Both the position numbers and the translations under genes were made by a program. Below, piece by piece: positions 24,601 through 52,110 of a stretch of 60,636 bases of DNA. Under the pieces are notes generated by a model. That model ran no database searches, was not told the DNA's origin, and saw only the letters and a list, made by a program, of their open reading frames with translations. Position 1 is the first letter of the stretch. Every line of letters begins with the position of its first letter. Where the stretch lies: positions 1 to 60,636 of the IMG/VR virus record IMGVR_UViG_3300019768_000005; one strand, written 5' to 3'. This DNA is from a virus (Duplodnaviria > Caudoviricetes).

Positions 24601-25101
24601 TTATTCATATCCGCGATTGTATTCTTCTGCAAGGAAATTGTTGTAATACGCCATGGCCCCGGGATCTGCGGCAAGTTTTGTAATTTCGCTGATAACGCCG
24701 TGAATCTCTGTAAATTCTTTCTGACATTTGTTTCTGACATAAACCATGTACTGCTTTGTTACCTCTGCGCCACGCTCTGCGGCTGCGGATATCATTGCGT
24801 CAAGATTGGCTAACATTTTTTTTTCTAAATCTACGATGATTTTTAAAGCTGCCGGGTTTGCCGGGCCATGGGTTGGTGCAGGTTGTGCAGAGTAAACCAC
24901 GCCATTTTTGTTTTCATTCTGGATGTAATCAGCGATACAGGCTGACAACTCATACCGTTCCATTTTTTCAGCACGCAAAAAGTCAGCTATGCCGTTATCA
25001 TTTGCCGCGATAAAATCCCTCATACAAGCCTTGTATTGCCCGCCAATCATGATAAGCGAGTTCATTACGGTGTTCAGGTCTTTTAGACATTCTGGGGTCA
25101 T
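24601..25101 (-). CDS. Ferritin-like protein with degenerate ferroxidase centre
   Basis: 166 aa with FtnA-like spacing (LN..N......Y, G.A.FL, LEK, Q, C-terminal G...YN..L); several metal ligands appear replaced. Confidence 0.6.
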   Translation of the reverse strand: MTPECLKDLNTVMNSLIMIGGQYKACMRDFIAANDNGIADFLRAEKMERYELSACIADYIQNENKNGVVYSAQPAPTHGPANPAALKIIVDLEKKMLANLDAMISAAAERGAEVTKQYMVYVRNKCQKEFTEIHGVISEITKLAADPGAMAYYNNFLAEEYNRGYE

Positions 25102-25469
25102 TATATTCTCCCTGTTTTTCTCTCTTCGGTTAGTTTTTTAACATAATCAGTTACAATTGCAGATTTTATAAATGCTTTTTTTGCACAAGCAGGGTTAGCA
25201 CAGACTGCGATGCCTTTTGGGGCAGTATCCTTATTGACCATAATTGAATCCAAGCCACAATTGGGGCACCTAAAAATAAAACCAGACCATTCGCCCATAC
25301 GGTTTGGTATCATGTAGATGTCAGTAACTGTTGTGATTGTCTCGCCAAAATTGTGCGGATCTTCTGTCTTGTCAGGAACTGAATGTACTGGGCAAGGGGC
25401 GGTCATAAACTTCCCGCATGTGCATCCCTCTATTTTTTCCGCAACTTCTGACTTTTCTTTTTCAGACAT
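25101..25469 (-). CDS. Cys-rich zinc-binding protein
   Basis: CTCG..CPVH, CPNCG and CANPAC. Confidence 0.65.
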   Translation of the reverse strand: MSEKEKSEVAEKIEGCTCGKFMTAPCPVHSVPDKTEDPHNFGETITTVTDIYMIPNRMGEWSGFIFRCPNCGLDSIMVNKDTAPKGIAVCANPACAKKAFIKSAIVTDYVKKLTEERKTGRI

Positions 25470-25487
25470 TTAAAAACCTTTTTTGAT

Positions 25488-25509
25488 GGCCCCCTTTTTA
25501 CGGGGGGCC
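25488..25509 (-). terminator. GC hairpin (terminator or processing site)
   Basis: GGCCCCC...GGGGGCC. Confidence 0.45.
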
Positions 25510-25543
25510 GATTTGACTTGATCCCTCAAGACCTTTGCCGTGG

Positions 25544-26437
25544 TTATTTTGCCTTTGCCTTAACGGCTTTTGCTGCCGCTTCTGGCTCTGGTTCCAGGAC
25601 AGGCTCCGGGCAAGCGCCGCATGTTCCACCAGCATTTAAAATGCCTGGGCAGGCGTTACGGCTTACGTTGATCGTGTTATCATTGAGGCACATGTCGATT
25701 TTTGTTCCCGGTTCGTCTCCGCAGCATCGTTCGTCGCAACCTCCGCATACAGCGCCTTGCGCTTTCATCGTTGATACGCAGCTTTTCGGAACTTCAATCG
25801 TCTGGTCCTCATAACACATGATCACTTCTTCACCGGTTTGGCCAGGGCAGTGGTCAGTTCAGGAGGGGCAAGGAGTAGAACATCCAGTAACACAACCACA
25901 TGCAATGCGTGTTTCAAGGGCAGTAATCATTGCGTTTTTCTCGCCGATCTCTTTGTTAGCATCGAGCTTGGCATCAATCGCGGATAGTCTGGCCTGGACT
26001 GAGCCGTTATCAACTGCCTGTTGTTTTGAAAGTTCGGCAAATTTTTCAATTGTTAAGATTTTTGCGTCACAGCAACACTTATCTGCAACTCTGGCGTTAT
26101 TTGCGATTTCACGCTCGATATCTCTCAGCCGGTCACCGTTTCTAAGTTCAGCCTGAAACTGACCGTCTTTGATTGAATCGAACCGAAGGATGTTTCTTGT
26201 TTCGGAATTCTGGTCGCTGATGCGGTCAAGGTTTGCACCAAGACCAGCCTCAAGGCAACGAGTCTCTGCTTTTGTTACTTCATTGTTGCGATTGATTCTA
26301 ACAGCGTTTGATCCCATATCGGCGAAAGGGGAACCATAGTAACCACCACCCCACTGACCGCCGCCACGACCACCAAAACCACCACCGCTCATTGCTGCTG
26401 TAAGTACCGCATCGCTTGTGCTAAAGCCATTATCCAT
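25544..26437 (-). CDS. Gly-rich/coiled-coil/Cys-rich protein, 297 aa if the TGA at 25859-25861 is read through; candidate selenoprotein (CxxU)
   Basis: ORFs 25859..26437 and 25544..25825 share a frame, linked by TGA plus 11 sense codons; CPS*TDHC aligns with the repeat CGGCDERC. Confidence 0.7.
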
Positions 26438-26474
26438 GTTTTTTGCTCCTTGTGTGATGGAGCATAAAAGAAAA

Positions 26475-26542
26475 GCCCCATCAAGTAAAATATACTCAAT
26501 GGGGCCATGTGGCGCAACTGAATGAAGTTAGGGCGGCAACTG
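26475..26542 (-). promoter_or_regulatory. Promoter overlapping a terminator hairpin, with a direct repeat
   Basis: TTGCGC-17-TATATT within a GCCCCAT..ATGGGGC hairpin; GCAACTG repeated 22 bp apart. Confidence 0.5.
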
Positions 26543-26811: not shown

Positions 26812-27381
26812 TTATTGCGTTTTATTAATATATTCTTCTATGTGCGTCAAGAGATGATCTTTCATTCGTCCAAAAACATCCCACCACTTTTTATCCCTTG
26901 GCAAAACAACAACTTTGGTTATTCTGTGCACAAACCGGCTCCATCCTATTTTGACCACAACATCATCATCATCTATAAATATAACAGTTTTATGGTTTTC
27001 TTTTGTATCTGTAAAGCCCATTGATGGGCAAAAAGCAACACAATATTCTGCGCATAAAAGTTCTTGCAAATAAATCCCAGTCGGGCCTGATTTTGAATGA
27101 CATGTTATTAATAATGGCATTCCTGGAGTCCGGATAAAAGTCTTTAATATCCTTTGTGCTGAAACATAAGACCCGTATTTAACACCATCTTTTTGCAAAA
27201 ACAGGAAGTTCCAAAACCAATCAATTATGCCGTTTGTGCCAGGTATTGCTAAAACTTGTAATGCCTCTTTATTATACTCCGTTTTATATACCGACCATTG
27301 CGTGCTACCGACTGAATTTGATGGGATTTTATAGGCTTTCTGCAAAAAGTCGACTGATATTTTGTATAATTCTTTATTCAT
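26812..27381 (-). CDS. Lipase class 3-like alpha/beta hydrolase
   Basis: IPGT...DW..N, nucleophile elbow TCHSKSG, DDDVV, C-terminal DH. Confidence 0.7.
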   Translation of the reverse strand: MNKELYKISVDFLQKAYKIPSNSVGSTQWSVYKTEYNKEALQVLAIPGTNGIIDWFWNFLFLQKDGVKYGSYVSAQRILKTFIRTPGMPLLITCHSKSGPTGIYLQELLCAEYCVAFCPSMGFTDTKENHKTVIFIDDDDVVVKIGWSRFVHRITKVVVLPRDKKWWDVFGRMKDHLLTHIEEYINKTQ

Positions 27382-46929: not shown

Positions 46930-47733
46930 TCACCCAACAATCGCAACCGTATAGAACAGATCCATAAAGGTATCTTCGTACCAGTGCGGCTGTGTTTCCC
47001 GTGGGTTGCTCGGACTTGTGTCGTTCTGGCCGTATTTCAGGCCGTATTCTGTGATCGAATTGTACTTCTTGATCTGGCCCTTGTACCCGGTCCTTGTTTT
47101 GACTTCCAGGATTCCATTCCCAATCAAAAGTCTATTAAAAACCCGAGCGCTGATCCCACACTCATTCTTTTTAAGCAGATCCGTGGCCGAGAACGTTGCC
47201 CTTACATTCTCTACGTATTCGGGCAGCATGGCGGTAGACACTCAAATTTCACAATGCAACTTTTTAGCGCACCCAAGATATGACACATCGCTCATTTTTA
47301 AATGGTTCTTTAAGTGGCCCAGGGCAACATACCCAATATCAAGCTGCTCTTTTTTGTCTGATGGGATTGGCAAAGATTTGGCCTGTTTTTCCATGAGAAG
47401 GAAATAATCTCTGGCCTCATTCCCACGGGCTGTTTGCTCAGCCATTGAAACTTTCTTCGCCGTGTCTTGGGTCAAGGCATAGTCTTTTCGGTTATGCCCT
47501 CCGCGACCTGTTTGCTTGACAGAATTATCAAGCAAAATAAAGTCCTGGTTTTCTTGAAAAAATGGATTCTCAATCACCTTTAACTTTACCCAGTTTGCAA
47601 ATTCCTGCTTACTACCAAGGAAAGAATGCAGCTCCCTGGCATCAACAGAATTGACAGACTCTTCCCCGATAGTCGCTGATTTGATTTTTACTTGATTTGA
47701 AATTGATGTTGTGGTATTACTTTGGATAGTCAT
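46930..47733 (-). CDS. AntA/AntB antirepressor split by an in-frame TGA (47242-47244)
   Basis: VDARELHSFL..GGHNRKDY N-domain; abutting same-frame ORF supplies the antirepressor C-domain (SATDLL..FNRLL..ETQPHWY). Confidence 0.8.
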
Positions 47734-50616: not shown

Positions 50617-51708
50617 TTAGTTAATTAGACCTATGTAATTACCGTCTTTGTCTTTTTTTAAGAGTTTTACCACGCCATTTTTATCAGACAAGTCTTTAAT
50701 TTTAATTTTTCCGGACTTCCAAAGTTTATACCTGTTAGGCCCAAGAAAATCCATTTGATACTTTTTATCCCTTGATTTAAGGAATCCTTCAAAGTCTCCA
50801 ACAAATTGACCTGCTTCAATTATTTTTCTTTTATCACCACGTTCAGTGTACGGGCGAATATTGCTTTTAAGTTCGTCTATATCCAAACCAAGATTTTTAT
50901 AAGTATCTGTCTTGGGTAAAAGAAAACATCGGCAGCGGGGATGAATTGGAGCTGTTGGATGGGGTTCATTTAAATCCCAGACCCTTCCATCGAGCGATGC
51001 GCATATCATGCAAGTGCCTCGGCCATGTATAGTTGACACTTCAAGCGTTGCACTCCATTCGACACGTTTTACGATATCTGAGTTTGCTTTATAAACAGCT
51101 TCGGCGGCATCGTTATTTATTGACGCAATATAAGTCCTAACAAGCGTTTCCGCATCGGTTTTGATGACACCAAAGGCCTCTTCCATATGCTTAACAATCT
51201 TGTCCGTGCTAAGACCCTGAAGAGTATCTGCAATAATAGCCGTTTGAAGTTCATCTGCTATCCTGAGTTCAAATGTATCCTTAACCCAATCCTCAAGCAA
51301 CTTGCCACCAACCGGAGTTGACACCACCATGGCCCGAAGCTGATCAGGCGAAACAGCAGAAAAGTTGAACCCAACCGTCTCCGCAAGCTTCCCATCAAAC
51401 GAAAGCATGTTGTCGTATTTTTGAAAAGAATATTCCCCGGCCACGACAGACGCATCTATAATGTCGCTGGATAGCTTGGCTTGGATGCCGAATGTCAACC
51501 GGTTAAGTTCTTCCAGGACCTCAAATTCCCGGGCCTTAGACGTAAACACCCCGGCAAGATCAGCAACATCATCAAACAGTTGTTCCCGCGCAATATCCAA
51601 CGCCTTCTGGATCTGGACCAACGAGGCGTCGGTGTATTGCTCTATTCGGTACTGCTGCTCTATATTGCGATAAAGCAGCAATAGGTCTTTGTATTCGTCA
51701 CCTGTCAT
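50617..51708 (-). CDS. Head morphogenesis protein (Mu gpF/SPP1 gp7-like)
   Basis: LVRT, WSATLE..TC.ICASLDG, P.HPRCRC. Confidence 0.85.
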   Translation of the reverse strand: MTGDEYKDLLLLYRNIEQQYRIEQYTDASLVQIQKALDIAREQLFDDVADLAGVFTSKAREFEVLEELNRLTFGIQAKLSSDIIDASVVAGEYSFQKYDNMLSFDGKLAETVGFNFSAVSPDQLRAMVVSTPVGGKLLEDWVKDTFELRIADELQTAIIADTLQGLSTDKIVKHMEEAFGVIKTDAETLVRTYIASINNDAAEAVYKANSDIVKRVEWSATLEVSTIHGRGTCMICASLDGRVWDLNEPHPTAPIHPRCRCFLLPKTDTYKNLGLDIDELKSNIRPYTERGDKRKIIEAGQFVGDFEGFLKSRDKKYQMDFLGPNRYKLWKSGKIKIKDLSDKNGVVKLLKKDKDGNYIGLIN

Positions 51709-51813: not shown

Positions 51814-52110
51814 TCAAGTCCCCTCAATATAAAATTTTTGCTTAAATATTTCACCGGCAGCATAAGAACCATCGCTGAACCGAACATGTGCCCAAAACTT
51901 CCAGGTGCCTGGTTTGTCAATGTCGTCTTCAGATGTTACTCTATAAGTTATTTCTCCTGTCGAGTCGTCTGATGACACAGCGTTAAATTCCCCTGTTGTT
52001 GTTAAATCTGGTTTTACATATTTTATTACCAATGCCGTTGCCCCTGTAATATCTTGCCCAACAGTGGCTACTAAATCCAACGCTGTTTGTCCTACGAAGA
52101 CTTTTCCCAT
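51814..52110 (-). CDS. BppU N-terminal-like virion protein
   Basis: KPD..G.F.A..G.I.Y..DID.PGTW. Confidence 0.55.
   Translation of the reverse strand: MGKVFVGQTALDLVATVGQDITGATALVIKYVKPDLTTTGEFNAVSSDDSTGEITYRVTSEDDIDKPGTWKFWAHVRFSDGSYAAGEIFKQKFYIEGT

Follow-up and report, generated by a model that had tools for sequence, protein, structure and literature searches.

A phage-specific rod protein encoded on the minus strand of the window (here, the whole 60,636-nucleotide stretch of DNA that was analyzed) ends at a UGA that is most likely a conserved in-frame recoding site, as judged from its recurrence in related loci. Programmed read-through of this codon, with the short rod protein as the main product and a version extended by two Cys-rich modules as a minor one, is the explanation favored here, and on comparative grounds we assign it a probability of roughly 0.6. 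Read-through is the best reading because an open module lies in frame behind the TGA, the codons following the stop evolve as coding sequence, one relative (L010) is devoid of a start codon before its first module, and no SECIS-like structure accompanies the UGA.

According to the proposed mechanism, the rod protein, whose family normally ends at this stop, is stopped by UGA here and in at least nine relatives, and the ORF of the Cys-rich module has been kept open in the same frame behind it. Most ribosomes would terminate at the UGA and release the short rod protein, and occasionally a minority would decode it with a near-cognate tRNA, presumably tRNA-Trp. In the resulting read-through product of 297 residues, a flexible linker would connect the C-terminal end of the rod to two beta-beta-alpha modules. 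By analogy with their occurrence at the C-termini of bacterial surface proteins, these modules may serve as accessory surface or adhesion domains.

Organization of the Locus

The terminase, portal, and major head genes of the window are those of a tailed dsDNA phage. On the minus strand, a 192-codon ORF starting with ATG (26437..25859) encodes the rod protein, as supported by the ORF list, 50 homologues, and an AlphaFold2 model, and runs into a TGA from which 104 in-frame codons lead to a TAA (25546..25544). The listed 93-residue ORF shares this frame and this TAA, and its possible starts are GTG 25825 and ATG 25819. Thus, the layout described in an initial annotation of this sequence, namely two same-frame ORFs parted by a TGA and 11 sense codons, is confirmed on the minus strand. 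The proposed read-through site (25859..25861, context TCC UGA A) is supported by comparison of ten loci. It is followed by a linker of 11 codons (25826..25858) that extends from the UGA to the first possible start, the GTG, and contains a conserved C-P-x-Q-x-G motif. Alignments and AlphaFold2 place two modules behind the linker, each composed of a beta-hairpin and a helix: module 1 (25736..25828, residues ~204–234 of the fusion) closes with CGGC and module 2 (25610..25705, residues ~245–276) with CGAC. A Pro/Glu/Ala/Lys-rich tail, marked by a fall in AlphaFold2 pLDDT, completes the ORF together with the final TAA (25544..25609). The TGA codon is identical, with 0 differences, in contigs from three sequencing runs, X1 (possibly the source of the window itself), X4, and X5, so the codon is not an assembly slip.

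Just past the TAA, a hairpin scan detected a GC-rich hairpin of nine pairs (25487..25510), scored on the plus strand, whose minus-strand tail, read by eye, has an A-rich stretch followed by a T-rich one; this terminator-like hairpin marks the end of the unit. A second terminator-like hairpin (26474..26506, minus strand), found in the same scan, lies upstream between the rod gene and the lysis genes; the rod gene stands after the tail-fiber and lysis genes and behind this hairpin. The next gene on the minus strand (25101..25469) encodes a 122-residue protein with CxxC pairs, which we label zinc-ribbon-like. In tblastn searches, this gene is found downstream in nine of 24 related loci, and in seven of the eight searched loci that have a TGA and an in-frame module, and is a conserved partner within the cassette. 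The last cassette gene in the window (24601..25101, minus strand) encodes a ferritin-like protein of 166 residues matching Pfam PF00210 (E 2.3e-5, 24.8 bits against a cut-off of 24.5), and occurs in one of the 24 related loci (L025). No prophage copy and no relative was found in a scan of genome contigs, and a 581-residue protein of the window has a single uncultured record as its sole match in the phage collection.

The Rod Protein and the Cys-Rich Module

The rod protein begins with a Gly-rich disordered stretch, continues as one long helix in which a CC(C) motif is invariant, and closes with a Cys-rich tail whose last residues are ...PCPS. AlphaFold2 models the helix over residues 41–179, mostly with pLDDT >90, and a predicted complex of three copies of residues 38–192 scores 0.74 with one control at 0.56, figures that do not decide whether the copies associate. 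The 50 homologues found range from 164 to 227 residues, and all 24 that were aligned share a common end point. The alignment indicates that the rod family normally terminates exactly at this stop, with TAA, TAG, or TGA. The initial annotation had taken the stop to stand in the place of the second Cys of a module CxxC; the 24-sequence alignment contradicts this, since the residues preceding the stop (CPS) form the conserved natural C-terminus of the upstream family. No family match for the rod protein was obtained in Pfam, PHROG, or NCBIfam, and neither the rod nor the module matched any of the PDB sequence profiles. The rod family is seen in the Atlas in viruses only. Its sole match in the phage collection is in Shewanella phage 1/44, where the homologue is devoid of the module and is located in a moron-like manner on the opposite strand between portal and head genes.

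The extension consists of two homologous copies of a Cys/His-rich beta-beta-alpha module of ~30 residues. The internal repeat noted in the initial annotation is therefore real, the two copies being aligned and each predicted as a beta-hairpin plus helix. AlphaFold2 assigns strands to residues 204–209 and 212–217 and a helix to residues 218–226 of module 1, and strands to residues 246–251 and 254–259 and a helix to residues 260–268 of module 2; over these stretches (204–226 and 246–268), the mean pLDDT per 10-residue block is 78–94, and the last two 10-residue blocks of the fusion fall to 62 and then 49. Residues 181–194 around the UGA are disordered (pLDDT <50). Judging by the model, a disordered linker that parts a long helix from two modules, all three modeled with confidence, is the layout that would be expected of an appended domain.

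The module gave no family match in Pfam, PHROGs, or NCBIfam, and a Foldseek comparison of its model with the PDB gave no fold match, all rows having E >5. A few of these chance-level PDB rows, and likewise one Atlas row, are Kazal-type domains, a lead only. A likeness to HNH, NUMOD3, or homing-endonuclease proteins among viral models (Foldseek, best E 6e-3, TM 0.13) was unconvincing and was rejected. The module was also found at or near the C-termini of several other kinds of protein, including one with an HYR_4C domain and one with collagen repeats, and in proteins of 900–2300 residues with cadherin-like domains; some module proteins exhibit N-terminal hydrophobic leaders and LAxTG-like anchors, both read by eye. 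From this distribution, it appears to be a mobile extracellular-type domain that is also met on unrelated proteins, including the C-termini of bacterial surface proteins.

Stop Codon and Reading Frame in Related Loci

At the DNA level, the comparison covered 27 distinct related loci in which the rod gene is complete at its 3' end (25 plus L046 and L066), while the closest homologues, P0003 and P0004, were compared as proteins and stand outside these counts; L033 was a spurious short match and was discarded. A module adjoins the rod gene in 14 of the 27 loci. Wherever the rod gene stops in TGA and a module adjoins it, the module is in frame and open, with that TGA as the only stop between them (10/10: the window, L002, L003, L007, L010, L011, L013, L023, L024, and L046). 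Between the TGA and the first module lie 27–240 nt, with at least seven different lengths, each of them a multiple of 3, and identity to the window protein is 27–49% among the eight of these ten loci that were aligned. All four rod genes with an out-of-frame module stop in TAG (L001, L017, L029, and L066), and no TAA-stopped rod gene has a module behind it among the 27 loci. Across the 17 loci other than the ten, i.e., those without an in-frame module, the rod gene stops in TAA (seven), TAG (six), or TGA (four). The view of the initial annotation that the site is a conserved in-frame recoding site and not a lone mutation is borne out by the ten loci, which are also consistent with its alternative proposal of a short and a long isoform.

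The main competing explanation, which we consider unlikely, is that the two ORFs are separate genes, that the UGA is a plain stop, and that translation of the module starts at ATG 25819 or GTG 25825, perhaps by termination–reinitiation, the shared frame being meaningless. At a single locus, an open shared frame has a chance of ~0.2 (about one in five), as this explanation allows; the arrangement is more than chance, because it recurs in relatives, although simple probabilities overstate its significance, since the loci are not phylogenetically independent. Separate module genes do exist: in L001 and L017, the rod gene ends in TAG and the module lies in another frame; in L001, the module gene has a GGAGG site of its own and follows a hairpin. 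Since rod and module are clearly separate genes in these two loci, fusion is not obligatory for function. In L029 and L066, the module lies in an overlapping -1 frame, and L066 shows a C CCC CCU run one codon ahead of its TAG. However, separate genes would not need the module to be in frame behind TGA alone, nor to stay in frame and open in all ten TGA loci despite at least seven linker lengths.

No rod and module protein fused in sense codons was found among the 50 homologues or 133 representatives, an absence that fits a need for both forms, as far as the sequences suggest. The sole long 'fused' representative, P0138, reads ...GHHGG-R-W-K... where L007 has its TGA; as it is known as a protein only, its R-W junction may stand for sense codons or for a TGA read by the gene caller. 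All database entries examined for the rod and module family stop at the UGA or begin at the first Met after it.

Start Codons and Coding Signal after the UGA

In the window, GTG and ATG stand at codons 12 and 14 counted from the TGA, i.e., 11 and 13 codons past it, and public gene callers start module proteins at that Met (P0064 and P0071–P0073), both of which agree with an independent module gene. The initial annotation saw no convincing RBS for the downstream ORF, and this is roughly right, since only a weak purine-rich stretch (AAGAAG, GGTGA) was seen by eye before the ATG. As both possible starts follow this stretch, the window could additionally give rise to the module as a free protein. 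The relatives argue against independent initiation as a general solution. The 180-codon extension of L010 contains three modules and a single in-frame ATG, GTG, or TTG, at codon 83, beyond the first module; in L002, the first in-frame start codon does not appear before codon 44, and in L024, none precedes a TTG at codon 13. The GTG of the window is GTA or GTT in L023 and L024.

Moreover, the sequence upstream of any start is conserved as coding sequence in the window, L023, and L024, an observation that also speaks against two separate genes. L023 and L024 retain the C-P-x-Q-x-G motif despite third-base differences, which are synonymous; in all three pairs, pS (0.42–0.96) is higher than pN (0.21–0.36) across the 13 codons that follow the UGA. 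The same motif is found inside an ordinary ORF in P0065, a stand-alone module protein. These patterns indicate that the 13 codons after the TGA evolve as coding sequence and that the extension is under purifying selection. The UGA is followed by A in six loci, by G in three, and by C in one, and Pro occupies position -1 or -2 in six of the nine loci listed; neither a conserved stimulatory context nor, in the folds of nine loci, a conserved structure was found at the UGA.

UGA Usage Elsewhere in the Genome

A second explanation, which we regard as quite unlikely, is that the host reads UGA unusually in general, through a suppressor tRNA, a weak RF2, or partial reassignment to Trp or Gly. It would accommodate the several rod-gene UGAs that fall within Gly-rich linkers, and P0138, a protein sequence only, which continues through the TGA position of L007 as R-W. 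It would also accommodate the sole other coding-strand ORF of the genome apparently split by TGA, an AntA antirepressor (47733..46930), where the 16 full-length homologues have Gly (nine), Asn (six), or Ala (one) at the TGA position. Against it, TGA ends 14 of the 51 large ORFs, nine of these 14 as ATGA overlaps, and also ends the second half of AntA itself, at the same point as in its closest homologues, P0175 and P0176. Furthermore, long ORFs of up to 1775 residues are free of internal TGA, this complete phage genome contains no tRNA genes, and it shows no other convincing split ORF. A third apparent case, the same-frame ORFs 52110..51814 and 51708..50617, was rejected, the read-through sequence between them being junk. 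Recoding of TGA throughout the genome (code 4 or 25) was likewise rejected, given that TGA is an ordinary stop, no tRNA is encoded, and further convincing split ORFs are lacking.

The Selenocysteine Alternative

The initial annotation proposed a selenoprotein with a CxxU motif, in which SelB and tRNA-Sec of the host would insert Sec at the UGA. Several observations speak for it: the in-frame UGA is kept in ten loci, Cys and His abound around it, the window and L003 have CPS-UGA, the window, L023, and L024 have a Cys four residues past the UGA, and these last three loci have in common a small 4-bp stem-loop ~12–28 nt past the UGA. The comparison makes it very unlikely. The hairpin described in the annotation as weaker does exist, and its stability is not beyond chance: the 72 nt from the UGA of the window have a folding energy of -10.4 kcal/mol, compared to a mean of -12.5 for shuffled sequences (z = +0.77), and 158 of 200 shuffles are at least as stable. 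Over nine loci, these z-scores (+0.77, +0.18, +0.62, -1.57, +1.88, +0.33, -0.78, +0.37, and -1.47) have a mean near 0, and the 72-nt folds contain no SECIS-like hairpin in any of them. The consensus fold of the window, L023, and L024 reaches -4.7 kcal/mol with a covariation term of +0.11, its stem being made by Pro and Gly codons, while synonymous sites past the UGA vary freely. Rfam gave no match at the gathering threshold nor at E up to 10. Thus, the SECIS prediction that the annotation had recommended yielded no support in any of its three forms.

The alternation of Cys and UGA anticipated at residue 193 did not appear either, as none of the 27 loci has Cys (TGC or TGT) at the site, where the codon is TGA, TAA, or TAG; P0065 has Pro at the position aligned by eye with the UGA. 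CxxU is present in only two of the ten TGA loci, the short rod protein is a complete stand-alone family, and TGA is an ordinary stop elsewhere in the complete phage genome. This genome encodes no tRNA-Sec and no selB, an absence of little weight, as both could come from the host. The annotation had named two outcomes that would speak against its proposal, namely that all close homologues have TGC or TGT with no conserved hairpin, or that the two halves are separately translated in relatives. Neither was found as worded: the hairpin is indeed not conserved, yet close homologues are without TGC or TGT, and the halves are separate genes in some relatives only. A phage selenoprotein family whose UGA is decoded by host SelB without a recognizable SECIS is highly improbable. 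Were it true, Sec would lie in a Cys/His-rich hinge between the rod and metal- or disulfide-bonded modules, and selenium supply would set the ratio of short to long protein. The case warns against calling CxxU selenoproteins from a single sequence.

Finally, a recent nonsense mutation in a once-continuous rod–module gene, of which a single in-frame TGA is the expected look and for which nothing more specific was found, is effectively refuted by the comparative evidence: the same arrangement in ten diverged loci, no uninterrupted rod–module homologue among the 133 representatives, the common family end at this position in 24 aligned homologues, and an extension under purifying selection.

Comparison with Known Recoding Systems

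Stop-codon-reassigned phages have many in-frame recoded stops and often suppressor tRNAs. The present genome resembles them in having an in-frame stop inside a region that is presumably translated, and differs from them in that its 60 kb contain two candidate sites, TGA serves as an ordinary stop, and tRNA genes are absent. Bacterial selenoprotein genes share with this locus an in-frame UGA in a Cys-rich context that is conserved in relatives, whereas SECIS-like structure, Cys homologues, and a conserved CxxU are missing here and the protein before the UGA is a complete family.

A closer parallel is offered by phage Q-beta. Programmed read-through of stop codons is textbook knowledge for RNA viruses and for this phage, whose coat/A1 pair depends on a leaky UGA read by tRNA-Trp. 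As in Q-beta, a UGA ends a short protein and an in-frame extension would give a minor long form, here proposed from sequence; the leaky UGA stands at the junction in ten of ten in-frame loci, with coding conservation across the stop; and the extension has no obligatory start of its own, as L010 and L002 illustrate, although the window does have a GTG and an ATG. However, Q-beta is a small ssRNA phage in which A1 is a proven capsid component, whereas the genome analyzed here, known from its genes only, is that of a 60-kb tailed dsDNA phage, and its base protein is a coiled-coil-like rod; no sequence similarity was found. UGA is described as the stop most prone to read-through, and read-through is the means by which viruses gain C-terminally extended isoforms (PMC7026636); an entry among the references of that paper calls A1 of Q-beta a read-through protein.

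In tailed dsDNA phages, accessory domains are known to be appended by another route. Ig-like domains are described as being added to phage structural proteins by frameshifting, as in the capsid of T3, Lactobacillus phage A2, and Listeria phages A118, A500, and PSA, and the mode of joining, which differs among relatives (in frame, by frameshift, or unjoined), is ascribed to whether or not a domain happens to land in frame (PMC5009743). The present family is similar in that a small extracellular-type domain would be placed on the C-terminus of a fraction of subunits, and in that joining varies: through a UGA in ten loci, as a separate gene in two, and in an overlapping -1 frame in two (L029 and L066). 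It differs in that the recoding would be stop read-through, in that the module has no Pfam family or PDB fold match, and in that the rod protein, known from its gene alone, is no more than a possible virion component.

No description of a conserved read-through site in tailed dsDNA phages came up among the papers listed by literature searches. If programmed read-through is confirmed, this family would be an example, defined by comparative genomics, in which UGA read-through occurs in nature next to separate genes and an overlapping -1 frame, making it a convenient system for understanding how phages balance plain against decorated subunits, and automatic annotation would be systematically missing the long form.

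Organization of the rod–module locus

The window is a complete virus record of 60,636 bp (CheckV estimate 100%) and derives from a tailed phage that has terminase, portal, head-morphogenesis, major-head and tail-fibre-like genes and an endolysin, nearly all genes being carried on the minus strand. Behind the tail-fibre and lysis genes, the rod ORF (26437..25859, minus strand) starts with ATG, encodes 192 aa and stops at TGA 25861-25859. The same frame then stays open for 104 codons up to TAA 25546-25544, its earliest candidate starts being a GTG at codon 12 and an ATG at codon 14. A terminator-like hairpin (26506-26474) lies upstream of this rod–module unit and a GC-rich hairpin (25487-25510) downstream. 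Since the ORF layout is clear and the TGA is identical in the contigs of three sequencing runs (X4, X5 and X1, the last possibly the source; 0 differences), the observation in the initial annotation that a TGA splits one open frame is correct.

On its 3' side, the unit is followed by the gene of a 122-aa protein with CxxC pairs (25101..25469, minus strand), which 9 of 24 related loci likewise have downstream, and then by that of a ferritin-like protein (24601..25101, minus strand; PF00210, barely over the cut-off), present in 1 of the 24. Elsewhere, a 189-aa ORF (26812..27381, minus strand) overlaps the endolysin stop in an ATGA and had no match in Pfam or PHROG; its H-S-x-S-G recalls the lipase/esterase nucleophile motif, as an impression only.

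The rod protein family

Judging from its homologues, the upstream rod protein is a complete family that ends at the position of the window TGA. The 50 homologues obtained by a word-indexed search measure 164-227 aa, each covering at most 65% of the read-through query, and when 24 of them are aligned the C-termini fall only a few residues from the window tail, ...CGC-x-GC-x-PCPS. In an exhaustive HMMER search, 133 of 1.84 billion representatives matched, the rod-type ones (100-353 aa) confined to query residues 1-195 and most of the module-type ones (46-122 aa) to residues 202-293; none of the 133 is a single ORF joining rod and module. The sole long exception, the database protein P0138 (353 aa), runs on into a different, Gln/Asn/Gly-rich tail and, as known from the protein sequence alone, reads ...GHHGG-R-W-K... 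where the related locus L007 has TGA. In another locus, L012 (2794-3555), the rod gene stops at TGA-C and is followed by 73 in-frame codons of Gln/Asn/Gly-rich tail without a module; the two tails look similar to the eye, and BLASTP between them gave no alignment.

No model of the rod family was found in Pfam, PHROG or NCBIfam and no relative in the PDB, and in the Atlas the family occurs in viruses only. In the AlphaFold2 model, built from a 58-row alignment, a Gly-rich, disordered N-terminus leads into a single predicted helix at residues 41-179 (mostly pLDDT >90), followed by disorder at residues 181-194 around the TGA and then by two near-identical beta-hairpin-plus-helix modules. The only rod homologue from a cultured phage is S144_28 of Shewanella sp. 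phage 1/44 (NC_025463; locus L031, 8890-9980), which together with two small ORFs lies on the strand opposite to the flanking portal and head genes, as a moron-like cassette; behind its TGA the frame continues for no more than 30 codons and carries no module.

Conservation of the stop codon and the module frame

Viral and metagenome contigs were searched for related loci with rod-based queries and one module-based query, and 27 distinct loci with a complete rod-gene 3' end were left after same-sequence duplicates had been dropped. In ten of these (the window, L002, L003, L007, L010, L011, L013, L023, L024 and L046), the rod gene ends in TGA and one to three modules follow in the same frame with no further stop between. 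The module lies in another frame in four loci, all with TAG as the stop: in L001 and L017, it is a separate gene farther downstream (in L001 with its own GGAGG site), and in L029 (2423-2896) and L066 (1741-1992) its ORF overlaps the rod-gene end in the -1 frame. The other 13 loci carry no module in the available sequence, which includes short downstream stretches (<200 nt in L025 and L026, ~530 nt in L021), and end in TAA (7), TGA (4) or TAG (2). Neither TGA with an out-of-frame module nor TAA or TAG with an in-frame one occurs among the 27 loci.

Between the TGA and the first module lie 27 to 240 nt, in at least seven different lengths that are all multiples of three. Because the loci are related, simple probabilities of the kind (1/3)^7 exaggerate the case; even so, the module frame has evidently been kept through many insertions and deletions. 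This conservation of a TGA plus in-frame module is the unexpected result.

Several signals indicate that the sequence 3' of the TGA is translated in the rod frame. The extension of L010 comprises 180 codons and three modules, and its sole in-frame ATG, GTG or TTG is codon 83, past the first module; L002 has no such codon before codon 44. In the window, L023 and L024, the codons that separate the TGA from the first candidate start they share encode a conserved C-P-x-Q-x-G motif and show synonymous differences at the third base; the window GTG has GTA or GTT as its counterpart in L023 and L024. For each of the three pairs of these loci, pS (0.42-0.96) is higher than pN (0.21-0.36) over the 13 codons after the TGA, as it also is in the module body. 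The same motif is internal to the ordinary ORF of P0065, a stand-alone module protein. Moreover, a 'V-N-[IV]-x-[IV]' element common to the longer linkers of L002, L010, L029, L046 and L012 points to coding sequence.

The module as a probable accessory domain

The window-type module (..MC-x4-TI-x-V..G-x2-CG-x-C) aligns with a commoner His-rich one (..C-H..TI-x-V..H-L-x-H-G-D-x2-G-x-C). A module-based scan found 47 viral-contig loci, in many of which the module stands at or near the C-terminus of a larger protein; His-rich examples are L043, L047, L050-L059, L062, L067, L068, L075 and L085, with the module at ~1801-1914 of each. By eye, several of the larger proteins have N-terminal hydrophobic leaders and two have LAxTG-like C-terminal anchors; one carries an HYR_4C domain and one collagen repeats. 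In representatives of 900-2300 aa the module occurs in 4-10 copies, and two of these proteins also have cadherin-like domains. The fold had no PDB match and no Pfam model. This C-terminal placement on leader-, anchor- and cadherin-like-bearing proteins suggests that the module is a widespread extracellular-type accessory mini-domain of fibrous or surface proteins.

Stand-alone module genes and proteins (L001:3593-3979, P0065) share a Cys-rich N-terminal segment, CC-E-x-P-x-C-L ... F-x-x-L-C, which a small ORF (L020:2542-2703) consists of alone, without a module. By inference only, this segment may serve as a tether or adapter that binds non-covalently to the Cys-rich rod tail when the module is unfused.

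Proposed decoding of the UGA

Termination with occasional read-through of the UGA is the most likely mechanism. Ribosomes terminating at the UGA would yield the short rod protein, and a near-cognate tRNA occasionally decoding it would yield a minor long form whose rod bears two modules at its C-terminal end via a flexible linker. In bacteria, UGA is usually read by tRNA-Trp, and termination is weakened by a C-terminal Pro. For L066 and L029, the overlap may reflect -1 frameshifting as an alternative to read-through: it is conceivable in L066 given the run C CCC CCU, which precedes the TAG by one codon, and the overlapping ATG there has no obvious ribosome-binding site.

A leaky or otherwise unusual host UGA is a rival consideration raised by the AntA/AntB antirepressor gene (PF08346; 46930..47733, minus strand), which has an in-frame TGA at 47244-47242. 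Full-length homologues (258-271 aa) are common, and 16 aligned ones have Gly (9), Asn (6), Ala (1) and never Cys at this position, the two closest (73% and 70% identical) having Gly. A GTG directly follows this TGA. The gene, probably the first selenoprotein candidate of the initial annotation, may carry a recent GGA-to-TGA mutation, may be split and restart at the adjacent GTG, or may hint at a leaky host UGA; the codon does not look like Sec. The second half has its own TGA stop where the two closest homologues end and, thus, UGA still terminates in this system.

An altered genetic code with UGA as sense is rejected, since TGA terminates 14 of 51 large ORFs (9 of the 14 in ATGA start-stop overlaps) and lies inside none of up to 1775 aa. 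In a scan for TAA/TAG-delimited frames cut by TGA into two sizeable pieces, credible splits on the coding strand were confined to two genes, rod–module and AntA; a third same-frame ORF pair was rejected, its read-through sequence being junk.

Selenocysteine, which the initial annotation had proposed within a CxxU motif, is highly improbable: CxxU occurs in only 2 of the 10 loci (the others have His, Gly or Pro before the UGA), no homologue has Cys at the site, and across the family the site holds stop codons of all three kinds, which is the signature of a genuine terminator. No SECIS-like structure emerged either. In nine loci, the 72 nt that begin with the UGA fold no better than their dinucleotide shuffles (z -1.57 to +1.88); for the closest three loci, the consensus fold reaches -4.7 kcal/mol, with a 4-bp stem of Pro and Gly codons that covariation does not support; Rfam, searched with its gathering score and also up to E 10, gave no match, and synonymous sites 3' of the UGA vary freely. 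The phage has no tRNA gene at all, tRNA-Sec included, and no selB, though the host could supply them, and search entries on phage selenoproteins describe none of this kind. The comparative evidence lends good support to the other suggestion of that annotation, in which a single in-frame UGA gives rise to a short and a long isoform.

Comparison with known recoding systems

Search entries for the full-text literature found on read-through and phages describe no tailed phage with a conserved read-through site. Of the three stops, UGA leaks most, and viruses make extended isoforms by read-through (PMC7026636). According to a review, phages add accessory domains to a fraction of structural subunits by recoding, and relatives vary in having the domain in frame, frameshift-joined or unjoined (PMC5009743). 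The mix found here (UGA in 10 loci, an overlapping -1 frame in 2 and separate genes in 2) matches the recoding-appended phage domains treated in that review (PMC5009743), and the in-frame UGA followed by modules would represent a known kind of recoding in a new form.
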